DNA of 32,000 bases from Promethearchaeota archaeon (GTDB lineage Archaea > Asgardarchaeota > Lokiarchaeia > Sigyniarchaeales > Promethearchaeaceae). The translations under genes were made by a program, and so were the position numbers. Shown here one piece after another: positions 343 through 30,551 of the stretch. Positions within the stretch are counted from its first letter, which is position 1. The number at the start of each line of letters is the position of its first letter. The notes beneath the pieces are model-generated. The model saw only the letters and a list, made by a program, of their open reading frames with translations. It made no database searches and was not told the origin of the DNA. The DNA is taken from positions 600,001-632,000 of the forward strand of contig JAFGBS010000009.1 in NCBI GenBank assembly GCA_016933055.1, read 5' to 3'.

Positions 343-1272
343 ATGTCTGAAAAAAACGATATGACGGGATGGATCCTTTTCAAAAGAAAGTCTGAAACTA
401 CTCCAGGTTGGGGATCTTATGCCGTAAATAGATTAATGGATGTAGCACCTTCCCGAAACATTTCCCTTAAAGTAATTTCCCCCGATAATTTTGATCTTAT
501 TATTACCCGAGAGAAAAAGACCACATGGATAAATCAACAAGTTGAAAAAATTCCTGATTTTGTCATAACCAGAGTAGGTTCTGGTGCAAGTTATTTTTCT
601 CTTGCAATAATTCGACATTTAGAACGGTTAGGAGTACATACCTTTAATTGCTCAAAGGGAATAGATATCGTTCGGGATAAATTATATGCCCAACAAGTTT
701 TGGTTCAAAGCAACCTTCCTGTTCCAAAAACAATTCTAGTAAAATTCCCGGTGAACATCGATTTAGTAGAAAGATATCTAGGTTTTCCCGTAATAGTAAA
801 AACTGTATTCGGTTCTAAAGGAGCTGGAGTATTTCTATCGGAAGACAGAAGATCATTCGTCGATCTGATGCAGCTTTTAGAAGCAACTAAACCTAATGTG
901 AATATCATCCTTCAAGAAACAATTACCACTAGTCTTGGAAAAGATTTGCGAGTTTTTGTAGTTGGTGGAAAAATAATAGGATGTATGCAAAGAACCAGTA
1001 AAACTGACAGCTTTAAAGCAAATTTCTCCGCAGGGGCAGATGTAGAGGCATATCCTATCAATTCTGAAATCGAATGGCTAGCAAGACAAAGCGCACGAAC
1101 TTTATCATTGGATATTGCGGGAATTGATCTCTTATTTGATGGGGAGCATTTTAAAATATGTGAGGTCAATGCATCCCCTGGATTTAATGGTCTTGAGCAA
1201 GCAAATCCAGGATTAAATGTTCCCAATGAAATATTTGATTACATATCCTTGCGATTGGGAGAGTTTGATTAA
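343..1272 (+). CDS. RimK/LysX-family ATP-grasp amino acid (alpha-L-glutamate-type) ligase
   Basis: Motifs PDFVITRVGS, RDKL...LPVPKT, FPVIVKTVFGSKGAGV, ILQE, DLRVFVVGG, FKANFSAG, GIDLL and CEVNASPGF are typical of RimK-family ATP-grasp enzymes. Alternative start at 361. Confidence 0.9.
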   Translation: MSEKNDMTGWILFKRKSETTPGWGSYAVNRLMDVAPSRNISLKVISPDNFDLIITREKKTTWINQQVEKIPDFVITRVGSGASYFSLAIIRHLERLGVHTFNCSKGIDIVRDKLYAQQVLVQSNLPVPKTILVKFPVNIDLVERYLGFPVIVKTVFGSKGAGVFLSEDRRSFVDLMQLLEATKPNVNIILQETITTSLGKDLRVFVVGGKIIGCMQRTSKTDSFKANFSAGADVEAYPINSEIEWLARQSARTLSLDIAGIDLLFDGEHFKICEVNASPGFNGLEQANPGLNVPNEIFDYISLRLGEFD

Positions 1273-1274
1273 AA

Positions 1275-3128
1275 TTGAAATTTCAATCCTCACCTAAAAT
1301 ATATCAAAATTTTAAGAGTGCGACACCAGAGAATACCCTAAAAAGCCTAACAAATTGTATGCAGCCCTATTTTTTACCACACATGCAATTTCGAGTAAAA
1401 CCTAATTTATATGGCACCGCATGGGGTGCTCAAATGACTTTATTTGGGAATTATGATTATAATGTGAGATCTAATGGAAAGGGAGACACTCCACACTTGG
1501 CAATCTTGAGTGCCCTGGCAGAATTCACTGAGCGAGTTCAGAGTTTTTTACCTTTTCCAATTGCGAATTATCTGCCGCGACTAATGTTAAAACCAGATTT
1601 GGATAAAAATCATCCAGAATATCAAAAATGGGTGGACTTCAATAAAATTTTGAAAAATGAAACGAATAATAAAACTCCCGCTTTTGAACCTTTTGATACC
1701 ACATTTTACAAATTTTACGATGTTATTGAGAACAAGGAGATATACTTGGATCAATCATTCCTTATTTCTCCTAGTAATGGTCGAGCTGCAGGAAATACAT
1801 ATGAAGAAGCAGTAGTAATGGCGATCACTGAAGTCTTCGAACGATATACGACCAGAATGGTTTTATTGAATAATGAAGCTGTCCCCACAATTTCTCTTGA
1901 ATTTTTATCGAATGATCTTCAGGAATATATCAATTCCATAACAAAGGATGATTTCGAGGTATATATCAAAGATTTTTCATTGGGTAAAGGTTTTCCCGTG
2001 GTGGGTATGTTATTCGGCACTTCTGATGTGGGTTATGTATTGAAATCGAGCTCCGATTTATCTTTGAACCGTGCAGTTTCGCGGTGCTTAGGAGATTTTT
2101 TCCAGAATTTCGATTCAGTTCCGCACCGTTTAACGAATGCCGCAAAAAAATCACATACAATGATTCAATATTATGAACAATTCCGGGAGATATTAGAATC
2201 AGAAGTTTCATTACAAGAGCTAAAAGCTAATCGTTTTTCCAGTGACTCTGTATATTCACCAAAGGAACTTGGGTTTTTAGCACAAGATACAGATTTTGAT
2301 TTTGAAACATGGGATTATAGTCATAATGATTTTTATAACGAACTCCTACAATTAATTGAGTTTTATAAATTGAATAAATACCGTCTTTATGTCCGTGATT
2401 TGGGCTGGTTAGGTTTTCCTACTGTCATGGTTTACTCTCCAGATCTTCAACAATATAAATTTTCAATTTACGATCGTGTAGCTTTTTTTGATAAACGAGT
2501 TTTTCCTGGAGAAAAAGTTCGAAAATTCCGAAAAGCGTTATTACAAGATGAAAAGGCAATATTTCATCCCACTATTTTAGATATATTACGAGATCCCACT
2601 TTTCTGTACTTATTTATATTCAAACGCCCAGAATCTGTAGGAATAATGAGAGGATTACCTCATGTGGGAACCCAATTATCTAGTTTTAATGCATGGTATT
2701 TTCTTGGATTATTAGCATTTTATTTTAAAGACATTCATCTTTCTCAAAAATATTTTAGTTGTTTATTAATTGATGAACCAAAAAATGATTTTGCCAAGTG
2801 TGCAATTGAATATTTGAGCTCTCTACCTACAAATGCATGGAGTGGAAATCGAATTGATCCTCAAGTAATAAGAGAAGTTACTGTTAGTCTCACTCATTTT
2901 CCGAAAGAATTACTAGTAGGCGTACTGGATACACTTTCATCAACACAAACTGTGAAAGAAATATTGCAACCTTTGATTGTACCTTGTCCATATTATGAAA
3001 CCACTTGTGTGGGTTGTGAACATAAAGATTATTGTACTTACGGCAAGTTATCTCCCATCCTGCAAAAGTTAGTTAAGGATAAACCAGATAAATTATATTT
3101 TTTTACCGATCCTCTAAGTTCTCCATAA
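1275..3128 (+). CDS. YcaO-domain protein with C-terminal TPR-like helices and a 4-Cys cluster
   Basis: YcaO ATP/Mg motifs NGKGDTPHLAILSALAEFTER and SNGRAAGNTYEEAVVMAITEVFER; C-terminal CPYYETTCVGCEHKDYC. TTG start 2 nt after the RimK-like stop. Confidence 0.88.
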   Translation: MKFQSSPKIYQNFKSATPENTLKSLTNCMQPYFLPHMQFRVKPNLYGTAWGAQMTLFGNYDYNVRSNGKGDTPHLAILSALAEFTERVQSFLPFPIANYLPRLMLKPDLDKNHPEYQKWVDFNKILKNETNNKTPAFEPFDTTFYKFYDVIENKEIYLDQSFLISPSNGRAAGNTYEEAVVMAITEVFERYTTRMVLLNNEAVPTISLEFLSNDLQEYINSITKDDFEVYIKDFSLGKGFPVVGMLFGTSDVGYVLKSSSDLSLNRAVSRCLGDFFQNFDSVPHRLTNAAKKSHTMIQYYEQFREILESEVSLQELKANRFSSDSVYSPKELGFLAQDTDFDFETWDYSHNDFYNELLQLIEFYKLNKYRLYVRDLGWLGFPTVMVYSPDLQQYKFSIYDRVAFFDKRVFPGEKVRKFRKALLQDEKAIFHPTILDILRDPTFLYLFIFKRPESVGIMRGLPHVGTQLSSFNAWYFLGLLAFYFKDIHLSQKYFSCLLIDEPKNDFAKCAIEYLSSLPTNAWSGNRIDPQVIREVTVSLTHFPKELLVGVLDTLSSTQTVKEILQPLIVPCPYYETTCVGCEHKDYCTYGKLSPILQKLVKDKPDKLYFFTDPLSSP

Positions 3129-5945: not shown

Positions 5946-6369
5946 TGTGGGAAATCTGATTTTTTAGGAAATTTATTACGATAATCGTATATAATGTTTA
6001 TTCTCGTCCTAAGTAGTAAACTCTCTCATTTCAAAATCGAAAGAAACTTTCAAATAGGTGGATTTAAGGCAGTGATGTAAAACTTTTTGTTAGCAATCCA
6101 TTTTACACAATCCCATTCTCTATATCGAGATTTTTCACATTATTATTCTGTAAAAGCTTTCAAGAAACAAGATGTATATATCATCGTCTTACAGATTTCT
6201 CAGAAGGATCTATCTGATTCAACATTAATATATTATGAAATCGGCATTTTCCCATTAATATGCATTAAAAAAAAAAAAAACAACAAAATTTTAAACAACA
6301 AAAAACAACAGAAAACGATCATATTTGGCAAAATCAAATATGTGAGAAGTGATGTCATTGAGCATGGTA

Positions 6370-6792
6370 ATGTCGGTTGATGGTTTAGTTCGGCTCCTCG
6401 GTGATCTGGCCAAAAGTGTCTCGTTTATTGAAGAAGCTTCGCTAATAAGTTCGGAGGGATTACTTATGGCTCATTCAGATATGTCACATGACAAGGAGGG
6501 ACTCAATCGGAATGCTGCGTTGAATGCAACTGTTATGTCTATCGGTCGTGGCATCACTCGTGTTTTTGGACAAGTTGTTCGTCAAATAACCTGCATTTAT
6601 GGGGATGGAAATCTCACTATCATTAATATTGGAGAGGTAATTCTCGCTCTCGTTACGAAAAAAGAACCAACCATGGAATTACTATTTATTGAGAATCCCG
6701 AGAATTCCCCAGAATTCGAGAAATATAAACATGATATTCAAAAAATCCATGCATTTATCAATAAAATCAAAAAAGAACTCGATGATCTGTAG
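6370..6792 (+). CDS. Roadblock/LC7 domain protein with C-terminal helical extension
   Basis: Pattern IEEASLISSEGLLMAHS...AALNATVMSIGRGIT...GNLTIINIGEVILALVT fits a roadblock fold. Start could be 6349 (GTG), 6364 or 6370. Confidence 0.75.
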   Translation: MSVDGLVRLLGDLAKSVSFIEEASLISSEGLLMAHSDMSHDKEGLNRNAALNATVMSIGRGITRVFGQVVRQITCIYGDGNLTIINIGEVILALVTKKEPTMELLFIENPENSPEFEKYKHDIQKIHAFINKIKKELDDL

Positions 6793-10011: not shown

Positions 10012-10380
10012 TTAATACCCACGGGTTCTACGAATAATATCTCCTTTTAGAACAACTTGGACGCCTTTATATTTGCCGTAGGATTTGGCATGACTTGAAA
10101 ATATGTTACCAATAATGAGTCCGCCATCGAATTTACAATCTAAACAAGCTTTTTCCAATAATCGAACTTGATTAATTCCTATCGAACGGTTCCAATCTTT
10201 AATAAACACACCAAATTGTGCATCATCTGTCTTGATTATCGCATCAAAATTCCATTTTTGTCCCGATTTCCCTATAACACTATCTGATAATTCATGAAAC
10301 AAATATTTTCGAGAAAAGTAATCTTTAACGAGGGTTTTGAGTGGTTGTTCCTTTACATTTTCTTGTGCATCATTGTCCAT
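10012..10380 (-). CDS. Stand-alone Mrr-like PD-(D/E)xK-fold domain, possibly inactive
   Basis: GKSGQKWNFDAII...GVFIKDWNRSIGINQV...GGLIIGNIFSSHA matches the Mrr_cat pattern, but the E of E-x-K appears as F. Confidence 0.65.
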   Translation of the reverse strand: MDNDAQENVKEQPLKTLVKDYFSRKYLFHELSDSVIGKSGQKWNFDAIIKTDDAQFGVFIKDWNRSIGINQVRLLEKACLDCKFDGGLIIGNIFSSHAKSYGKYKGVQVVLKGDIIRRTRGY

Positions 10381-10532
10381 CTATGATCACCCGATTGATT
10401 ACGTACATACTCCTAATTTTATAATATGTAGAAAAGATAATAGATCACACCTATAAAAGGTAGTATTATCACAGCAATACCCCTTTAATCGACAAAATCG
10501 AATATCAAAGAATCATCCGACACTATTCGACA

Positions 10533-11351
10533 TTATCTCATATTCCATAATTCTAAGAATGAGTAGGAGTGCTTAGGACCGTTTATTTTCACAAAATTTA
10601 AAATATCTTCTAGTAAATTCCGATGCAAAATTTCTATGATCTCATTGCATACATGCGTACATTCAATATATTCATAATTGCACTTATCTCGTGATAATTG
10701 ATCACATAGTGTTTTCAGTTTGAGTGATATTCCTTCAGATTGCAGGACTGTAAAATGATCCCAACCATCTATTACACCTGCAATGGTTTTTGGTGGTAAA
10801 ATTTTCAATAGATCGAACACAGGTTCTAATCGGATTCGAATTTTCTCTTTTGTATTCTCAGATGCAAACTCCGTTTCACAGAATTGCACATAATGATTAA
10901 AGAGAATTTTTGCTTGGGATGTTTTAGTGGTATCTGTTATTTTCCACCTTGAAGCAACTTTACACGTAATAGTTCCGTCATCAGCAAATTTTTTCTCTTC
11001 ACTAGGCTGATTCGAAAATCCTGTGGGATAAATCCAACATTGCGGAGGTTTAATTAATGTGCTATGTAGTTTACATCCATTAGTGGTAACATCATAAAAA
11101 ACACATTTGGAATTTGACGTGGAGATGTTTATTTTGAATGAAAATAAATCCCCTCTTCTGAAATCTTCTTTTTCTGCTATATTTTGCCCGATATAATGTT
11201 CTGCTAAAAATTTAGGCACATCTATCATTATATGGCAACAATCTGCATGACATATAGAAGGATCAATACAATTTGGTCCGCTGATGGAATCTCGCATCAA
11301 GATGTTATATTTTCTAATCAATTCTAGCATCTGTGCACTGGATTGCTCCAT
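10533..11351 (-). CDS. YkgJ-like (CxxCxxCC) cysteine-cluster protein
   Basis: CIDPSICHADCC...CVFYD...GCKLH...KPPQCWIYP, plus further Cys near the C-terminus. Start moved to ATG 11351 because the GTG/TTG-type extension is not supported. Confidence 0.7.
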   Translation of the reverse strand: MEQSSAQMLELIRKYNILMRDSISGPNCIDPSICHADCCHIMIDVPKFLAEHYIGQNIAEKEDFRRGDLFSFKINISTSNSKCVFYDVTTNGCKLHSTLIKPPQCWIYPTGFSNQPSEEKKFADDGTITCKVASRWKITDTTKTSQAKILFNHYVQFCETEFASENTKEKIRIRLEPVFDLLKILPPKTIAGVIDGWDHFTVLQSEGISLKLKTLCDQLSRDKCNYEYIECTHVCNEIIEILHRNLLEDILNFVKINGPKHSYSFLELWNMR

Positions 11352-11430
11352 TTGTTTTATAACGATCAAAGCGGTAAATATTTTTGTTTGAATTAAACCA
11401 GCGTGTAAGGGGAAACATAAAAACAAAAAG

Positions 11431-11991
11431 TTAGTTATTTAAAGTCCAAGCCCACGCTCTTCCGACTTTTTGGGTTCGTTGAATGACTTCTCGCTCTTCT
11501 AGTTCACTCATTACTTTCCACACTTCAGAGTTGGTCATTTTGAAATATCTTCGAATTTCAGGAGTAGTTAGGGTTTCGCCACTAAGCATATTCATTATTA
11601 TTCTTTTTATTTCATCGTAATCTTGTGAAATTGTCGTAAGGTCACCATCCTCGCTCATTTCCTCCTTTTGATCCATTTGATAGATGATATCTTCTGCGAT
11701 CTCATGAAGTCGTTTAAGTTTCATATCTATGTTTCGAGGTTTCATGAATAAGGCACAAAGTTCAAGCCCTCGTGGAAAAGCAACTACATAGAAGTTATCG
11801 TATAAAATTGCTGTGGGTTTCAAACCCGAATTTCCTCCTCGAAAACTTAAATAGAAATTCATTAGGAAATTCTCATAGTCTATATTTATCTCATTTTCTA
11901 CAAACGTGACAACACTCTTAAGAATGGGTCCTTCTATGAGATCAAATCCGAGTTTTGCTGCCGAAATTATCTCATTTTCATCAAAATTCAT
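11431..11991 (-). CDS. Two-domain protein: N-terminal longin/uDENN-like domain and C-terminal winged helix-turn-helix
   Basis: N-terminal GFDLIEGP (FDxxxGP hairpin seen in longin/uDENN families); C-terminal LTTPEIRRYFKMTNSEVWKVMSELEEREVIQRTQKVGRAWAW is a wHTH. AAGGAG lies upstream of the ATG. Confidence 0.6.
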   Translation of the reverse strand: MNFDENEIISAAKLGFDLIEGPILKSVVTFVENEINIDYENFLMNFYLSFRGGNSGLKPTAILYDNFYVVAFPRGLELCALFMKPRNIDMKLKRLHEIAEDIIYQMDQKEEMSEDGDLTTISQDYDEIKRIIMNMLSGETLTTPEIRRYFKMTNSEVWKVMSELEEREVIQRTQKVGRAWAWTLNN

Positions 11992-12006
11992 TATAGTTCT
12001 CTCCTT

Positions 12007-12552
12007 TCATGCTCCTTTCTCCTTTTCAATTTCTTCCATGATCACATTAATGATTTCCACTAAAATTCTCCGCTGTTCCTGATTTATCGCAGTGATACCA
12101 TAAGTGGGTACTTGAAGGACATCTTTAACCATTTTTGGATTTAGGTGCCCATCCAAGTCTTGTTTATTAGCAAGAGCGACAATTTTTGCACAGTCGTCTG
12201 GAAACAAATTTTTTGTATGGCTTACTAGTTCTTTTGTACTAAGAACGTTTTTGGGAGAAGAGTCGGTAACAATAAACACAATATCTGAACCTTCTATATA
12301 TTGGCTCATGTAATGTTTTAGATATGCTTTTTGTCCTCCAAAATCCCAAATTTTTAATTTAAATCCTTCAAAATCTAGTGTTCCCAAATCAAAACCTTGA
12401 GTTGGATTATATTTTTTTTCGATATTTTTCTGCGTAAGGAGTTTCATCAGTGTAGTTTTTCCCACTGCGGGAGAACCCACAAAGGAAATTTTTCCTACCG
12501 CGGGACGTGTTTTTACTTTAGGGATGTCCAGTGGGTTTTCATCAATTGTCAT
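12007..12552 (-). CDS. Small GTPase, Arf/Rag-like Ras superfamily (Asgard type)
   Basis: G1 GSPAVGKTT, G2 PTQG, G3 WDFGGQ, G4 NKQD, G5 TAI. Likely start ATG 12552 (MTIDENP), giving 181 aa. Confidence 0.92.
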   Translation of the reverse strand: MTIDENPLDIPKVKTRPAVGKISFVGSPAVGKTTLMKLLTQKNIEKKYNPTQGFDLGTLDFEGFKLKIWDFGGQKAYLKHYMSQYIEGSDIVFIVTDSSPKNVLSTKELVSHTKNLFPDDCAKIVALANKQDLDGHLNPKMVKDVLQVPTYGITAINQEQRRILVEIINVIMEEIEKEKGA

Positions 12553-12703
12553 CTTATCTTCTCTCGGAACAAGTAGTATGAAGAAAGAAAAAACGAAAAG
12601 TAATTTCATTTCTGGTAACATGGAGATATTACTCGGATATATCACATGAAATAACAAAAATCTCACAAAATACTTAATAGAACACAAGCTGAAAATTGAA
12701 TAC

Positions 12704-13288
12704 ATGGAGCTAGTAAAATCGAAATCTACGTTGCAAATGGCTATTACAGGAGAAACTGAAGCTATTGTTAAATATGATGCATATTCTAAGAAAGCGAAAG
12801 ATGAGGGTCTGCCAAATATAGCCTATCTGTTTGATGCATTAGTCCAAGCCGAACAAATTCATAATCGGAACCATTATAATGCTCTAAAGTCAGTATCCGA
12901 AGTCCAATTTACTCCTACGATCCCTCCCAAAATCCATGTTGGCTCTACTTTGCAAAATCTGCAAGATTCAATTAAGGGAGAACAATACGAATCCAAAAAT
13001 ATGTATCCTGATTTCATAAAAGAGATACGTGATGAATTAAGGGAAGAAAATGGACGTGTTGCTAAATTGTCCTTTGCATGGGCAGAAGAAGTAGAATTGG
13101 GACATGCAGATGCTTTGAAAATTGCACTTAAAGCGTTAGAGAGTGGGCATGATCTTGATGTACAAGCTATATTCGTTTGTAGAGTATGTGGGAATTTGGT
13201 ATTTAACGAACCTGAAGAATTTTGTTCAGTGTGTGGTCATGATCAACGCTTCTTCATGAAAATCAATAGGTCTGGAGATGAGAAATAA
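12704..13288 (+). CDS. rbr: Rubrerythrin
   Basis: Di-iron motifs GETEA...AEQIH and GEQYE...EVELGH; C-terminal rubredoxin-like CRVC...CSVCG. Confidence 0.93.
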   Translation: MELVKSKSTLQMAITGETEAIVKYDAYSKKAKDEGLPNIAYLFDALVQAEQIHNRNHYNALKSVSEVQFTPTIPPKIHVGSTLQNLQDSIKGEQYESKNMYPDFIKEIRDELREENGRVAKLSFAWAEEVELGHADALKIALKALESGHDLDVQAIFVCRVCGNLVFNEPEEFCSVCGHDQRFFMKINRSGDEK

Positions 13289-13998
13289 TGTCATATGAAG
13301 ATAGATTTCATCTTAGCGGCGGAGAAATAATTCGTCAAATCACATTCGGATTAAATGATGGTATCGTTTCAATCTTTGCTTTATTAGCTGGAATTTATGG
13401 ATCTGGACAAGATGATAAGGTAATATTAATCACGTTACTAGCTGCTGCAGTTGCTGGGGCCCTTTCTATGGCTGCGGGAGAGTTTATTAGTGGAAAAGGT
13501 GAACGAGATTATTATAATCACGAAATAGATCAAGAACGTCTCGAGATAAAACTCTGTCCAGATATTGAAAAAGAGGAAATCCGTTTTATTTACCAAGACA
13601 AAGGGTTCTCTGGAGAGATCTTAGATACTATTGTAAACCATATTACTTCAGATCGAGATTTGTGGGTAAGAGAAATGGTGATTTCTGAGCTTGGCGTTAC
13701 AGAGGTGGAGGATGCAAAAACTGGGATTAGAAATTCTATCGTAATCTTTTTTACTTTTATCTTGGGCTCATTATTTCCTACACTCCCTTATTTGATTCTT
13801 TTACCCTTTACCGTTAATCCGTTCACTAAGTTCATCATTGCAACGATTATTACATTTGGAGGTTTATTTCTTGCAGGTGCGCTGAAAAAATTCGTTACGG
13901 GCAAGAATTGGATAAAAAGTGGTCTGGAAATGTTACTTGTAGGTGCATTCGCATTCTCAGTTTCTTATTTTATCGGATTGGCAATCGAGTTATTGTAA
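13288..13998 (+). CDS. VIT1/CCC1 family Fe/Mn transporter
   Basis: FGLNDGIVS, AGALSMAAGEF, acidic cytoplasmic domain (EIDQERLEI...EKEEI...MVISELG) and about 5 TMs. Start overlaps the rubrerythrin stop (TAATG). Confidence 0.95.
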   Translation: MSYEDRFHLSGGEIIRQITFGLNDGIVSIFALLAGIYGSGQDDKVILITLLAAAVAGALSMAAGEFISGKGERDYYNHEIDQERLEIKLCPDIEKEEIRFIYQDKGFSGEILDTIVNHITSDRDLWVREMVISELGVTEVEDAKTGIRNSIVIFFTFILGSLFPTLPYLILLPFTVNPFTKFIIATIITFGGLFLAGALKKFVTGKNWIKSGLEMLLVGAFAFSVSYFIGLAIELL

Positions 13999-28196: not shown

Positions 28197-30551
28197 ATGC
28201 CATGTATGTATTGCGGTTCTACTACGATTGCATATTCTTGTGAGAAATGCGGTAATCAATTCTGTTCGGATCATGTGATCACAACCGAGTATTATAGTTG
28301 TAAGAAACATGGGATAAAATACACTACTGCTCAAGCTGAACAATCTGATTATCGTTGTACTCTTATTCCAAAAAGTTCCTGTCCCGACTGTTCGAAAGAA
28401 TTAACCATTGATAAGTTACCATCTGGTCAATATTTTCTTAACTGTCCTAGTTGCTCTTGGGATTCTTTCAATGGAACTCCGAAAATCCATTATATCACAA
28501 AAAAATTAGTATTTGACGAAGGTTCTCGATCAGGATTGATTCAAAGACCTGAAGAATGTGGATTAAAATTGAAGATCAACCAAGGAGTCCAGATTTGCTC
28601 TAATTGTTTCATTCAATCCTTAGAAAGTGGTGGTGTAACATCATTCGCCACTATTAAAAATATATACAATATCGATACTCGTACGATTGTGCGAATTATA
28701 AATAAATTAAAGAAAGACAAACTCATTACAGGACAAATCGACACGAAAAATCAAGTTTTCATTTATATACCCGATGATTCTCGAGCATATATAAATGATG
28801 AAATTCAAAAAAATGGAAAAATCTCAATGCTACAGATTGCAAACCGATTCAATGTTCCCGAGGACAATGGTTTAGAATTAATGTACGAAGTTTTGAAAGA
28901 ATTTGAAATTCATGGAACCTTTGACACAAAGAAAAAAAACTACTATAGTATAGATTTCCTGAACGAATATATTGTAAAAACCGTCGATGAGAAAGGCAGA
29001 GTCTCCATCCAAGAAATGAGTGATATATTGGGTACATCAGTAGATATCGTGAAATATTATGTAATTGAATTATTCAAGTCTCAGAAGTTGGATGCGTATT
29101 TTGCAGATAGCGGTAAACAAATTGTATCGAAAAATAAACTGAAATCTGAAGTAGAATCATATTGTAAAGAACACGGATTATTTAAGCTGACAGATGCTGC
29201 AAAACATTTCAACGTAGCTGTAGAACTCATTCGAAAATCTTTGGTCGCACTCATTAAAGAAAAACGTATTCGTGGATTATTTACACAGAAAAAAGAATTC
29301 ATAACAGAAGAAGAATTATCCAGCCGTATTAAGAGTGTCACCCGTGTTTATCGAACTATGAAATTGCGAGAACTAGCCTTAAAACTGGGAATAACAGAAT
29401 TAAGAGTTGAAGAAACTTTAGCCAGTTTGATTTCACGTGGAGCTATTTATGGATTTATTGACATGAATCGTCGAGAATTTGTCGCTGATAGACAACAACC
29501 TACAACAATGGGTCCCACAGTTATTCCTTTAGATGACACGACACAAACTACCGGTAGCGTGGAAGTACTGCGAGAATATGATTTTGTAGGGGGTCAACTA
29601 CACTTTAAAGTTGTGGTAAAAAACCACACAGATAAAGTCATCACTGACATCAAAATCATATTGGATGCGCCAAGTTCTTACAGGAAACAGAGTGATATCT
29701 TGAAAGTCTCAACCATTTCCCCGCACAATTCTAGAGGTATTGATTTTTATCTCGAGCCCGTAGAATGTGGTATCTCAACAATAGGGGGGACTGTGATCTA
29801 TAAAGATGCGACGGGAAAGCCTCACACTATTCATATTAGACCTAAAGAAGTTCAAATCAAATGTCCTTTAGTATCAAAAACTCTAGATACCATAGAGGAT
29901 TGCCAGATTACTATTCAAAATCTTCCAAGTGATGCACGAGCATTTTTGATAGCAGATCTGGATCCAAAACTCGCTTATCGTGCAGCATTTCGGGCTATTA
30001 CCAATTTTGATACTCGAAATGTCACCAGTTTGGAACTTTCTGATCCAGATGATTACAAGGCTGAAGCGTGGTTCTCGTCCGAAGCTAAGGTTACTGGTGG
30101 GCGCATCATCACTCGAATCGCCGTATCGGGGAAGAATCAGAGTTTAGAGATTCGCGTGTGGTGTAACGATCCTGGACAATTAACAGGATTTCTGGCTAAA
30201 ATCATTGAATTACTCTTCCTGGAAATTAATATCGTTAGGAAGGTAAAAGCAGAAGAACGTCAGCGCACCTTAGATGTAATGTCTATAACACAGAACCTAA
30301 TTACTGCTAGTGATTTTTGTGCTGTTAGATATAAAGCTAAGGATATATTATTAAAATTAGAAGATACGCATTATCGTATGTCACGTGTAGTGGGTAATAC
30401 AGATCCTACACTTGCTAAGATTCAGTATTGGATAGAAAAACTTCAGAAATATGACGAGGAAGAGAAAATCCAAGAGAAAGAAGCTGATTCGTTAATGAGT
30501 GATATTGAAGGCTTCCAAAACACCCTAGCTCGAAGTTTAGCACCCACATAA
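28197..30551 (+). CDS. Multidomain protein: AN1-type Zn finger and further Cys pairs, tandem PCI-like winged helices, beta-sandwich/platform C-terminus
   Basis: CMYC...CEKCGNQFCSDH; CPDC, CPSC, CSNC; repeated G-x-(I/F)-D/T...Y/F...helix-G(K/R)(I/V)S units; C-terminal LHFKVVVKN...IDFYLEPVECGISTIGGTVIYKD. Confidence 0.75.
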   Translation: MPCMYCGSTTIAYSCEKCGNQFCSDHVITTEYYSCKKHGIKYTTAQAEQSDYRCTLIPKSSCPDCSKELTIDKLPSGQYFLNCPSCSWDSFNGTPKIHYITKKLVFDEGSRSGLIQRPEECGLKLKINQGVQICSNCFIQSLESGGVTSFATIKNIYNIDTRTIVRIINKLKKDKLITGQIDTKNQVFIYIPDDSRAYINDEIQKNGKISMLQIANRFNVPEDNGLELMYEVLKEFEIHGTFDTKKKNYYSIDFLNEYIVKTVDEKGRVSIQEMSDILGTSVDIVKYYVIELFKSQKLDAYFADSGKQIVSKNKLKSEVESYCKEHGLFKLTDAAKHFNVAVELIRKSLVALIKEKRIRGLFTQKKEFITEEELSSRIKSVTRVYRTMKLRELALKLGITELRVEETLASLISRGAIYGFIDMNRREFVADRQQPTTMGPTVIPLDDTTQTTGSVEVLREYDFVGGQLHFKVVVKNHTDKVITDIKIILDAPSSYRKQSDILKVSTISPHNSRGIDFYLEPVECGISTIGGTVIYKDATGKPHTIHIRPKEVQIKCPLVSKTLDTIEDCQITIQNLPSDARAFLIADLDPKLAYRAAFRAITNFDTRNVTSLELSDPDDYKAEAWFSSEAKVTGGRIITRIAVSGKNQSLEIRVWCNDPGQLTGFLAKIIELLFLEINIVRKVKAEERQRTLDVMSITQNLITASDFCAVRYKAKDILLKLEDTHYRMSRVVGNTDPTLAKIQYWIEKLQKYDEEEKIQEKEADSLMSDIEGFQNTLARSLAPT

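Follow-up and report, generated by a model that had tools for sequence, protein, structure and literature searches.

The principal finding is a pair of genes in which an Arf-like small GTPase (181 aa; 12007–12552, minus strand) is encoded directly upstream of a 186-aa partner protein (11431–11991, minus strand), composed of a longin fold and a winged helix, and which lies behind a box that is also found in the promoters of the ftsZ and cdrS-like genes. All positions refer to the window, that is, the whole 32,000-nucleotide stretch of Promethearchaeota DNA analyzed here. This arrangement points to a eukaryote-like switch in archaeal cell division, in so far as such a role may be predicted from sequence. 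In the favored reading, which we hold with even confidence, the GTPase would act with a cognate longin partner carrying a nucleic-acid tether, within a CdrS-type division regulon, with the binding of the two proteins, the GAP activity, and the contact with the DNA all being predictions.

The GTPase and the longin domain of its partner

The GTPase retains the intact motifs of the Ras superfamily (G1 GSPAVGKT, G2 Thr51, G3 WDFGGQ, and G4 NKQD), and its match to TIGR00231 lies above the cut-off. The best Pfam family is Arf (6e-20), the closest PDB sequences are ARL2 and ARL3 (1e-17), and there is also a match to the solved Asgard Arf entry 8oul (E 2e-9). The stretch from G2 to G3 aligns with ARL2 free of gaps, with an interswitch of Arf length, and the WDxGGQ switch II and the NKQD motif are present. 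Across 45 orthologs, all of the G motifs and the switch II glutamine are invariant (residues G26, G31, K32, T51, D70, G73, Q74, and N129-D132). A mechanically called ORF of 232 aa, starting at 12705, was ruled out as the GTPase gene because the orthologs begin 4–26 residues before strand 1.

The Arf-related GTPases described previously in the Asgard archaea (ArfR/AArf; bioRxiv 2024.02.28.582541, PMC11914678) have the same Arf-type G3 and G4 motifs and the same G2–G3 spacing, although the GTPase of the window, unlike these proteins, has no convincing membrane-binding N-terminal helix. It lacks Gly2, and its N-terminus is a proline-rich leader of 20 aa (moment 0.46), which is not clearly amphipathic. 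The orthologs of family 2 have a leader of 10 aa that is possibly amphipathic (moment 0.47–0.58), and the other orthologs have almost none. No genomic partner of the Arf-related GTPases was found in these two papers. The genome itself contains approximately 50 GTPase-like matches, as against a single close homolog of the longin partner.

The full-length model of the partner (pLDDT 82) has two domains, separated by an acidic linker of low confidence. When modeled alone with AF2 (pLDDT 88), the N-terminal domain (residues ~7–110; 11662–11973, minus strand) has the topology beta-beta-alpha-beta-beta-beta-alpha, that is, a five-stranded sheet opened by a beta-hairpin, as in the longins. Searches of Pfam, NCBIfam, and PDB sequences recovered no family for this domain, and the winged helix dominates the matches when the whole protein is used for the fold search. 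A fold search with the N-terminal domain, by contrast, returns almost exclusively longin, roadblock, and profilin folds. The top matches are the longins of the adaptor mu (AP-2) and sigma subunits (Z 8.1–8.7, rmsd 2.3, to AP residues 1–73), followed by TRAPP (Z 8.2), a chain of the GATOR1 complex (Z 7.1), and C9orf72-SMCR8 (Z 6.5), with MglB at Z ~7. The longin scores (Z 6–8.7) are middling, and the Z-scores do not separate longin from roadblock; the match list is nevertheless uniform, and the model begins with a beta-hairpin at residue 8, rather than with the N-terminal helix of the roadblock proteins. In place of the two C-terminal helices of a longin there is one long helix (88–116), followed by the linker and the winged helix, so that the third longin helix is absent. 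The stand-alone homologs of the Jordarchaeia have an extra C-terminal segment, which may supply this missing helix.

The first-pass annotation had described this domain as longin- or uDENN-like. The longin part of this description stands, given the model and the fold matches, while the DENN part does not: longin, linker, and winged helix account for all 186 aa, and the partner is not a DENN module (uDENN + cDENN + dDENN) because it has no cDENN or dDENN part.

The FDxxxGP-type hairpin noted previously at the start of the partner was found to be a fixed feature in the Lokiarchaeia. The sequence GFDLIEGPIL corresponds to residues 15–24, and the motif F16-D17-x3-G21-P22 (11926–11946, minus strand) has the same spacing as W33-D34 / G38-P39 in C9orf72. 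In the Lokiarchaeia partner sequences, D17, G21, and P22 are each present in 126/126, and position 16 is F or W in all 126. A GP motif combined with a WD-type dipeptide has been reported to be specific to the GAP-class longins, and to occur in some Asgard longins (PMC12290439), and the partner has both, with the GP preceding strand 2. The candidate arginine finger, R74, in the beta4–beta5 turn, was ruled out, given that arginine is kept at this position in only 76 of the 126 homologs (with K, Q, N, H, or E elsewhere), and there is therefore no conserved catalytic finger; R51 is better kept (114/126), and is lost in the distant orders. With its GP motif and no conserved finger, the partner resembles the non-catalytic member of a GAP-longin pair, of the C9orf72 type. 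In refined terms, it may be classified as a GP-motif, GAP-class longin of the C9orf72/NPRL2 type, with a GAP activity that is predicted only.

The exchangeable tail of the partner

The C-terminal region of the partner (residues 124–186; 11434–11622, minus strand) is modeled as a winged helix-turn-helix with three helices and a two-stranded wing that is complete and basic (R172, K175, G177, R178). The best fold match of this model has a Z of 10.9 and an rmsd of 1.7 over 62 residues, and distant orthologs exceed the Pfam HTH cut-offs (HTH_DeoR, 8.5e-8), which bears out the C-terminal wHTH proposed from the sequence. The linker (11623–11661, minus strand) falls below a pLDDT of 50 at residues 116–121, and has a conservation of 0.43 and a median net charge of −10, while the winged helix has a median net charge of +5, and is as well conserved as the longin (0.74 vs 0.75).

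Homologs of the N-terminal domain were found in several classes of the wider phylum, where no full-length homolog was recovered from many other families searched. The tail is a winged helix in the Lokiarchaeia, whereas Borrarchaeum/Sifarchaeia and one further family have a small domain with an HhH-like motif at its end (a call based on the motif and weak matches, with E-values of 0.067 in Pfam and 0.79 in the Atlas), and another family has a poly-Arg segment. All three are tails of nucleic-acid-binding types, and the presence of three such different tails on a single longin suggests that the tail would tether the partner to nucleic acid.

Two other functions may be considered for the winged helix. 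The first, which we regard as unlikely, is that of a protein-interaction module, as in ESCRT-II, CdvB, and Npr2/Npr3, which would place the partner, as one subunit, in a GAP or adaptor complex located at the membrane or the division ring, with no role in the binding of nucleic acid. This is consistent with the architecture of Npr2/Npr3, which join a longin to C-terminal winged helices (PMC3521125), with the presence of ESCRT-II among the tied winged-helix matches (Z 8.8), and with the non-catalytic, C9orf72-like motif pattern, which suggests a second longin subunit, in a genome that has other GP-motif longin-like proteins. The completeness and basic charge of the wing argue against it, however, as do the distant orthologs that pass the cut-offs of DNA-binding HTH families, and a nucleic-acid ligand would account more readily for the exchange of the winged helix for HhH-like or poly-Arg tails.

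The second, which is rather unlikely, is that of a sequence-specific transcription factor gated by the GTPase, which would read sites other than the upstream box and provide one-step signaling from GTPase to gene. The level of conservation of the winged helix would fit this role, as would the conserved residues N154, S155, and W158 of the recognition helix in the main Lokiarchaeia order, and the ArsR/MarR-type regulators that head the list of fold matches. No second DNA motif was identified, however, and HhH and poly-Arg tails bind nucleic acid without sequence specificity, which argues for tethering over the reading of sites. The coupling of the nucleotide state of the GTPase to the DNA binding of its partner, which had been proposed for the pair, is plausible as a prediction.

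The upstream box and its predicted reader

The region between the GTPase and the divergent rubrerythrin gene contains a CdrS/aCcr1-type box (12615–12643, no strand assigned), with half-sites GTAACAT (12615–12621) and ATATTAC (12626–12632), and a weak third site at 12637–12643. Its center is ~72 nt from the GTPase start and ~80 nt from that of rubrerythrin, upstream of both. The consensus, RTAWTAY-N4-RTAWTAY, is a period-11 repeat of a self-complementary heptamer, which was recovered by a de novo motif search of 28 diverse promoters with a log-likelihood of 170, vs 54–62 in shuffles. When the matrix was built without the window's family, the window site (12614–12635) ranked first in the 3.76-Mb genome, where further strong intergenic sites precede the two ftsZ genes, the gene of a second Arf-like GTPase, and CdrS-like RHH genes. 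These sites are conserved, mostly 50–110 nt before the start: a box of at least 12 bits precedes 22/29 ftsZ-A, 16/21 ftsZ-B, 16/28 cdrS-like genes, and 16/30 orthologs of the second GTPase, compared with one of 205 neighboring promoters and 1.5% of all the upstream windows in the genome, and while the non-independence of kin leads these counts to overstate the significance, the box nonetheless spans families whose partners are only ~30% identical. In the reverse test, a matrix derived exclusively from the ftsZ/cdrS promoters of other genomes gave scores of at least 10 bits to 47 of the 51 operon promoters, compared with a background of 2.9%, and placed the window site 16th of 3047 upstream windows. 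The box is thus common to the promoters of ftsZ and the cdrS-like genes, as in a CdrS/aCcr1 regulon.

Of the three non-Loki pair types, two (L054 and L056) have no such box upstream, and the box is weak in two family-1 loci. A box of 14.7 bits precedes the HhH-tailed pair. In the Jordarchaeia (19.7 and 11.6 bits) and in Borrarchaeum (12.9 bits), the box also stands upstream of the other ftsZ. A scan for arrays of three sites, at a threshold that was too high, returned nothing. A generic AT-rich promoter feature was ruled out, with 0/130 AT-rich control promoters reaching 10 bits. An iron or peroxide operator of rubrerythrin/VIT1 was also rejected, given that close relatives alone have rubrerythrin in this divergent position, and the box persists when this neighbor is replaced (21.0 bits in L283, with another upstream gene), although it may affect the divergent rubrerythrin gene in the window. 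The rubrerythrin and VIT1 genes themselves (12704–13998, plus strand) overlap by one base, have the promoter region in common with the operon, and are kept only in the closest relatives.

High-scoring sites in the genome that precede the genes of a TBP-domain protein, a Rag-like GTPase, and a gelsolin-looking protein were set aside, as they are not conserved in the homologs retrieved, which were distant. The second Arf-like GTPase, a stand-alone gene (L074:2452-2976, minus strand; genome C22:44452-44976), is among the closest paralogs of the window GTPase, and has its box ~85 nt upstream in two families. A divergent P-loop GTPase (genome C17:422422-423066; L271) and a GP-motif longin-like protein (C27:68638-69081; L276) have boxes 75–91 nt upstream, of 14.8 and 11.9 bits, respectively. 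In the window, a weak box (10462–10483; 10.3–10.7 bits, and 13.8 in L043) precedes the gene of an Mrr-like restriction-endonuclease-fold protein (10012–10380, minus strand; Pfam Mrr_cat 4e-4). This gene remains close to the operon throughout family 1, and is a possible further member of the regulon.

The RTAWTAY heptamer corresponds to the aCcr1-box core, and this box has been described as similar to the CdrS motif (PMC9976878, PMC9976892). CdrS binds 41–110 nt before transcription starts, including that of ftsZ1 (PMC8406309). The genome encodes several CdrS-like RHH proteins, for which the best family is NF058555 CdrS (1e-11, 44 bits, against a halophile equivalog cut-off of 100), with aCcr1_fam at 9e-5. 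Four of these paralogs (L179, L180, L185, and L183, at genome C6:252405, C22:3988, C6:276764, and C36:124110) are not linked to ftsZ, unlike the situation in other Asgard classes, in which a CdrS-like homolog lies directly before ftsZ in four genomes. The system resembles those of CdrS in the haloarchaea and aCcr1 in the Sulfolobales in the core of the box, its position upstream of the promoter, the targeting of ftsZ and the regulator's own gene, and the presence of a CdrS-like RHH protein, together with the cdrS-ftsZ linkage of the other classes. It differs in having several CdrS-like paralogs, in being predicted from sequence, and in targets with no counterpart found in these regulons as described, that is, two Arf-like GTPases and a longin protein.

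A CdrS-like RHH protein is the most likely reader of the box, as predicted from the identity of the half-site with the aCcr1 box, the persistence of the box beyond the winged-helix tail, and the variation of the recognition helix while the box stays the same. The alternative, in which the winged helix itself reads the box, so that the pair would regulate itself and control ftsZ and cdrS, appears improbable. The occurrence of the box before the operon in nearly all Lokiarchaeia loci, and the period-11 repeats, which would suit cooperative binding by winged helices, are in its favor. The box, however, also precedes the HhH-tailed pair, as well as ftsZ in the Jordarchaeia and Borrarchaeum, whose homologs have no winged helix; the recognition helix is entirely different between the Lokiarchaeia orders, while the box is not; and the half-site equals that of the RHH-bound aCcr1 box. 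The first-pass annotation had proposed the divergent promoter (12553–12703) as a target of the winged helix, and while this region does contain a conserved box, the sharing of this box with ftsZ and cdrS, and the other features just listed, indicate that it is probably not the partner's own operator. With an RHH protein as the reader, the operon would be a target of the cell-division regulon, and not a private autoregulatory switch. Many metabolic genes are also found in the CdrS and aCcr1 regulons (PMC8406309, PMC9976892, PMC9976878), so that membership does not prove a role in division.

Gene coupling and relationship to known systems

The partner gene is present in 110 of the 121 genomes of the class (38/40 of high quality), with one strong match in each, and its named homologs are mostly from Promethearchaeota/Lokiarchaeota. 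The GTPase lies directly upstream, and mostly overlaps the partner, in 51 of the 51 distinct Lokiarchaeia loci read, which represent six families, although most are from a single family and the counts are not independent; with the GTPase upstream at every locus, the adjacency is not due to chance. The GTPase-regulator pair proposed initially is thus conserved and coupled across the Lokiarchaeia. In other Asgard classes, a GTPase is again found 0–5 nt upstream in three families, with a distance of 1–5 nt in Borrarchaeum/Sifarchaeia and the other HhH-tailed family, and the Jordarchaeia and Baldrarchaeia have a stand-alone longin homolog with no GTPase directly upstream. The remaining neighbors of the pair are not kept beyond the family.

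A number of individual loci provide further observations. The gene of a CxxCxxCC (Zn/Fe-chelating) protein (10533–11366, minus strand) follows the pair in the window, whereas six other family-1 loci have it on the upstream side, in divergent orientation, which indicates that the window genome is rearranged. In genome G103, the partner gene is followed immediately by a further, truncated copy of itself (L048:3503-3910). In Borrarchaeum (L281; G157:C5:306500-321000), the GTPase-longin-HhH pair is ~8 kb away from the cdrS-ftsZ operon, and the gene after the pair resembles a longin + V4R/TRAPPC3-type protein, as judged by eye. Elsewhere in the window, a stand-alone roadblock/LC7 protein (6349–6792, plus strand) precedes two genes for 2-hydroxyacyl-CoA dehydratase D-components; a protein of 784 aa (28197–30551, plus strand) has several PCI/DDRGK/UFL1-type winged-helix matches and a C-terminal VPS28 domain, and is ESCRT-I-like; and the genes of a RimK-like ATP-grasp ligase and a YcaO protein, in this order and 2 nt apart (343–3128, plus strand), form a possible peptide or protein modification pair.

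The two genes of the window are 15 nt apart, as noted previously, and are indeed in frame, separated by TGA and a spacer (11992–12006, minus strand) that reads AAG GAG AGA ACT ATA and includes the Shine-Dalgarno-like motif AAGGAG. This spacer is the equivalent of the stop/start overlaps of the orthologs, in which the gaps range from −26 to +49 nt, with a −4 overlap in 24 of 52 rows. Only six of the 52 junctions are in frame, and the stop codon varies randomly among TGA, TAA, and TAG. The four closest relatives (83–85% identity) have junctions of −1 or +2, all of them out of frame. The in-frame spacing of the window is therefore due to chance, and selenocysteine recoding or read-through at the TGA was rejected by the frame statistics. 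Naturally fused homologs were absent from the longer proteins, which is weak evidence, and from the 50% representatives, in which the two long matches are repeats. Read-through into a GTPase-longin-winged-helix fusion, which had been raised because the two genes are in frame across TGA and five sense codons, has practically no chance of being correct in the face of these junctions, which support normal re-initiation and indicate that the genes are translationally coupled.

It is very improbable that the two products do not interact, and are merely co-transcribed members of a regulon. In MK-D1, GTPases and longins generally do not share an operon (PMC10933270), and the stand-alone longins of the Jordarchaeia and Baldrarchaeia also fit this possibility, but the strict order and translational coupling of the pair persist across several Asgard classes while the other neighbors change, and the longin and roadblock domains are established platforms for GTPases. 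The prediction of the GTPase–partner complex gave a score of 0.00, which counts for neither side.

Further close parallels are found in two groups of systems. The partner has the longin fold and the (W/F)D-x3-GP hairpin, with the spacing of C9orf72, in common with the GAP-class longins (the Arf GAP C9orf72-SMCR8, FLCN-FNIP, NPRL2-NPRL3/GATOR1, and the GP-motif Asgard longins of PMC12290439); it combines a longin with a winged helix, as in Npr2/Npr3, and its candidate client is Arf-like, as in C9orf72-SMCR8. It differs in its small size (186 aa), the absence of the third longin helix and of any DENN part, the single winged helix, the lack of a conserved arginine finger (which is also absent from C9orf72 itself) and of a second longin subunit in the operon, and in having its cognate GTPase encoded next door. 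The MglA/MglB operons of bacteria and archaea also encode a small GTPase with a roadblock/longin-fold partner, although here the GTPase is Arf-like (WDxGGQ, NKQD), and the partner has a longin topology with no roadblock N-terminal helix, and an exchangeable tail of the nucleic-acid-binding type. By analogy, the pair would work like MglA/MglB, built from a GAP-class longin, and it falls outside the DENN modules, MglB, and the catalytic GAP-longins.

Given this, the first gene would encode an Arf-like GTP/GDP switch, and the second, a minimal GP-motif longin, most likely a dimer that docks the GTPase, as in MglB and the eukaryotic longin pairs. The longin would probably promote GTP hydrolysis or read the GTP state, while the basic tail, joined to it by the flexible acidic linker, would bind nucleic acid and thereby anchor the module to the DNA. 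A CdrS/aCcr1-type RHH regulator would switch the operon on together with both ftsZ genes, the cdrS-like genes, and the second Arf-like GTPase, and this co-regulation makes a role in cell division or cell-cycle coordination the most likely. A more far-reaching version, which we consider quite doubtful, is that the partner would be a chromosome-tethered regulator of the GTPase, expressed together with the division genes. It would set up a gradient of GTP/GDP states around the nucleoid, by which FtsZ-based division would be positioned or timed, in a logic resembling that of Ran and chromatin-bound RCC1, and it would have been built from an ancestor of the GATOR1/C9orf72-type longins.

No description of the GTPase-longin pair or of a Loki CdrS regulon was found in the literature consulted, in which subscription papers are largely uncovered. 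The Asgard genomes contain dozens of small GTPases and longins with no matched partner or process, an obstacle named by a structural study (PMC10933270). The present locus provides a single-copy, class-wide, ready-matched combination of a GTPase and a GAP-class longin, for which orthologs should be present in cultured Lokiarchaeia. The GTPase targets of the GP-motif Asgard longins are the subject of a question raised in a recent paper (PMC12290439), which becomes testable in this pair, with two small soluble proteins and 30 bp of DNA. The common box, in turn, assigns the pair to cell division as its predicted process, and gives the outline of a Lokiarchaeia regulon of the CdrS type.
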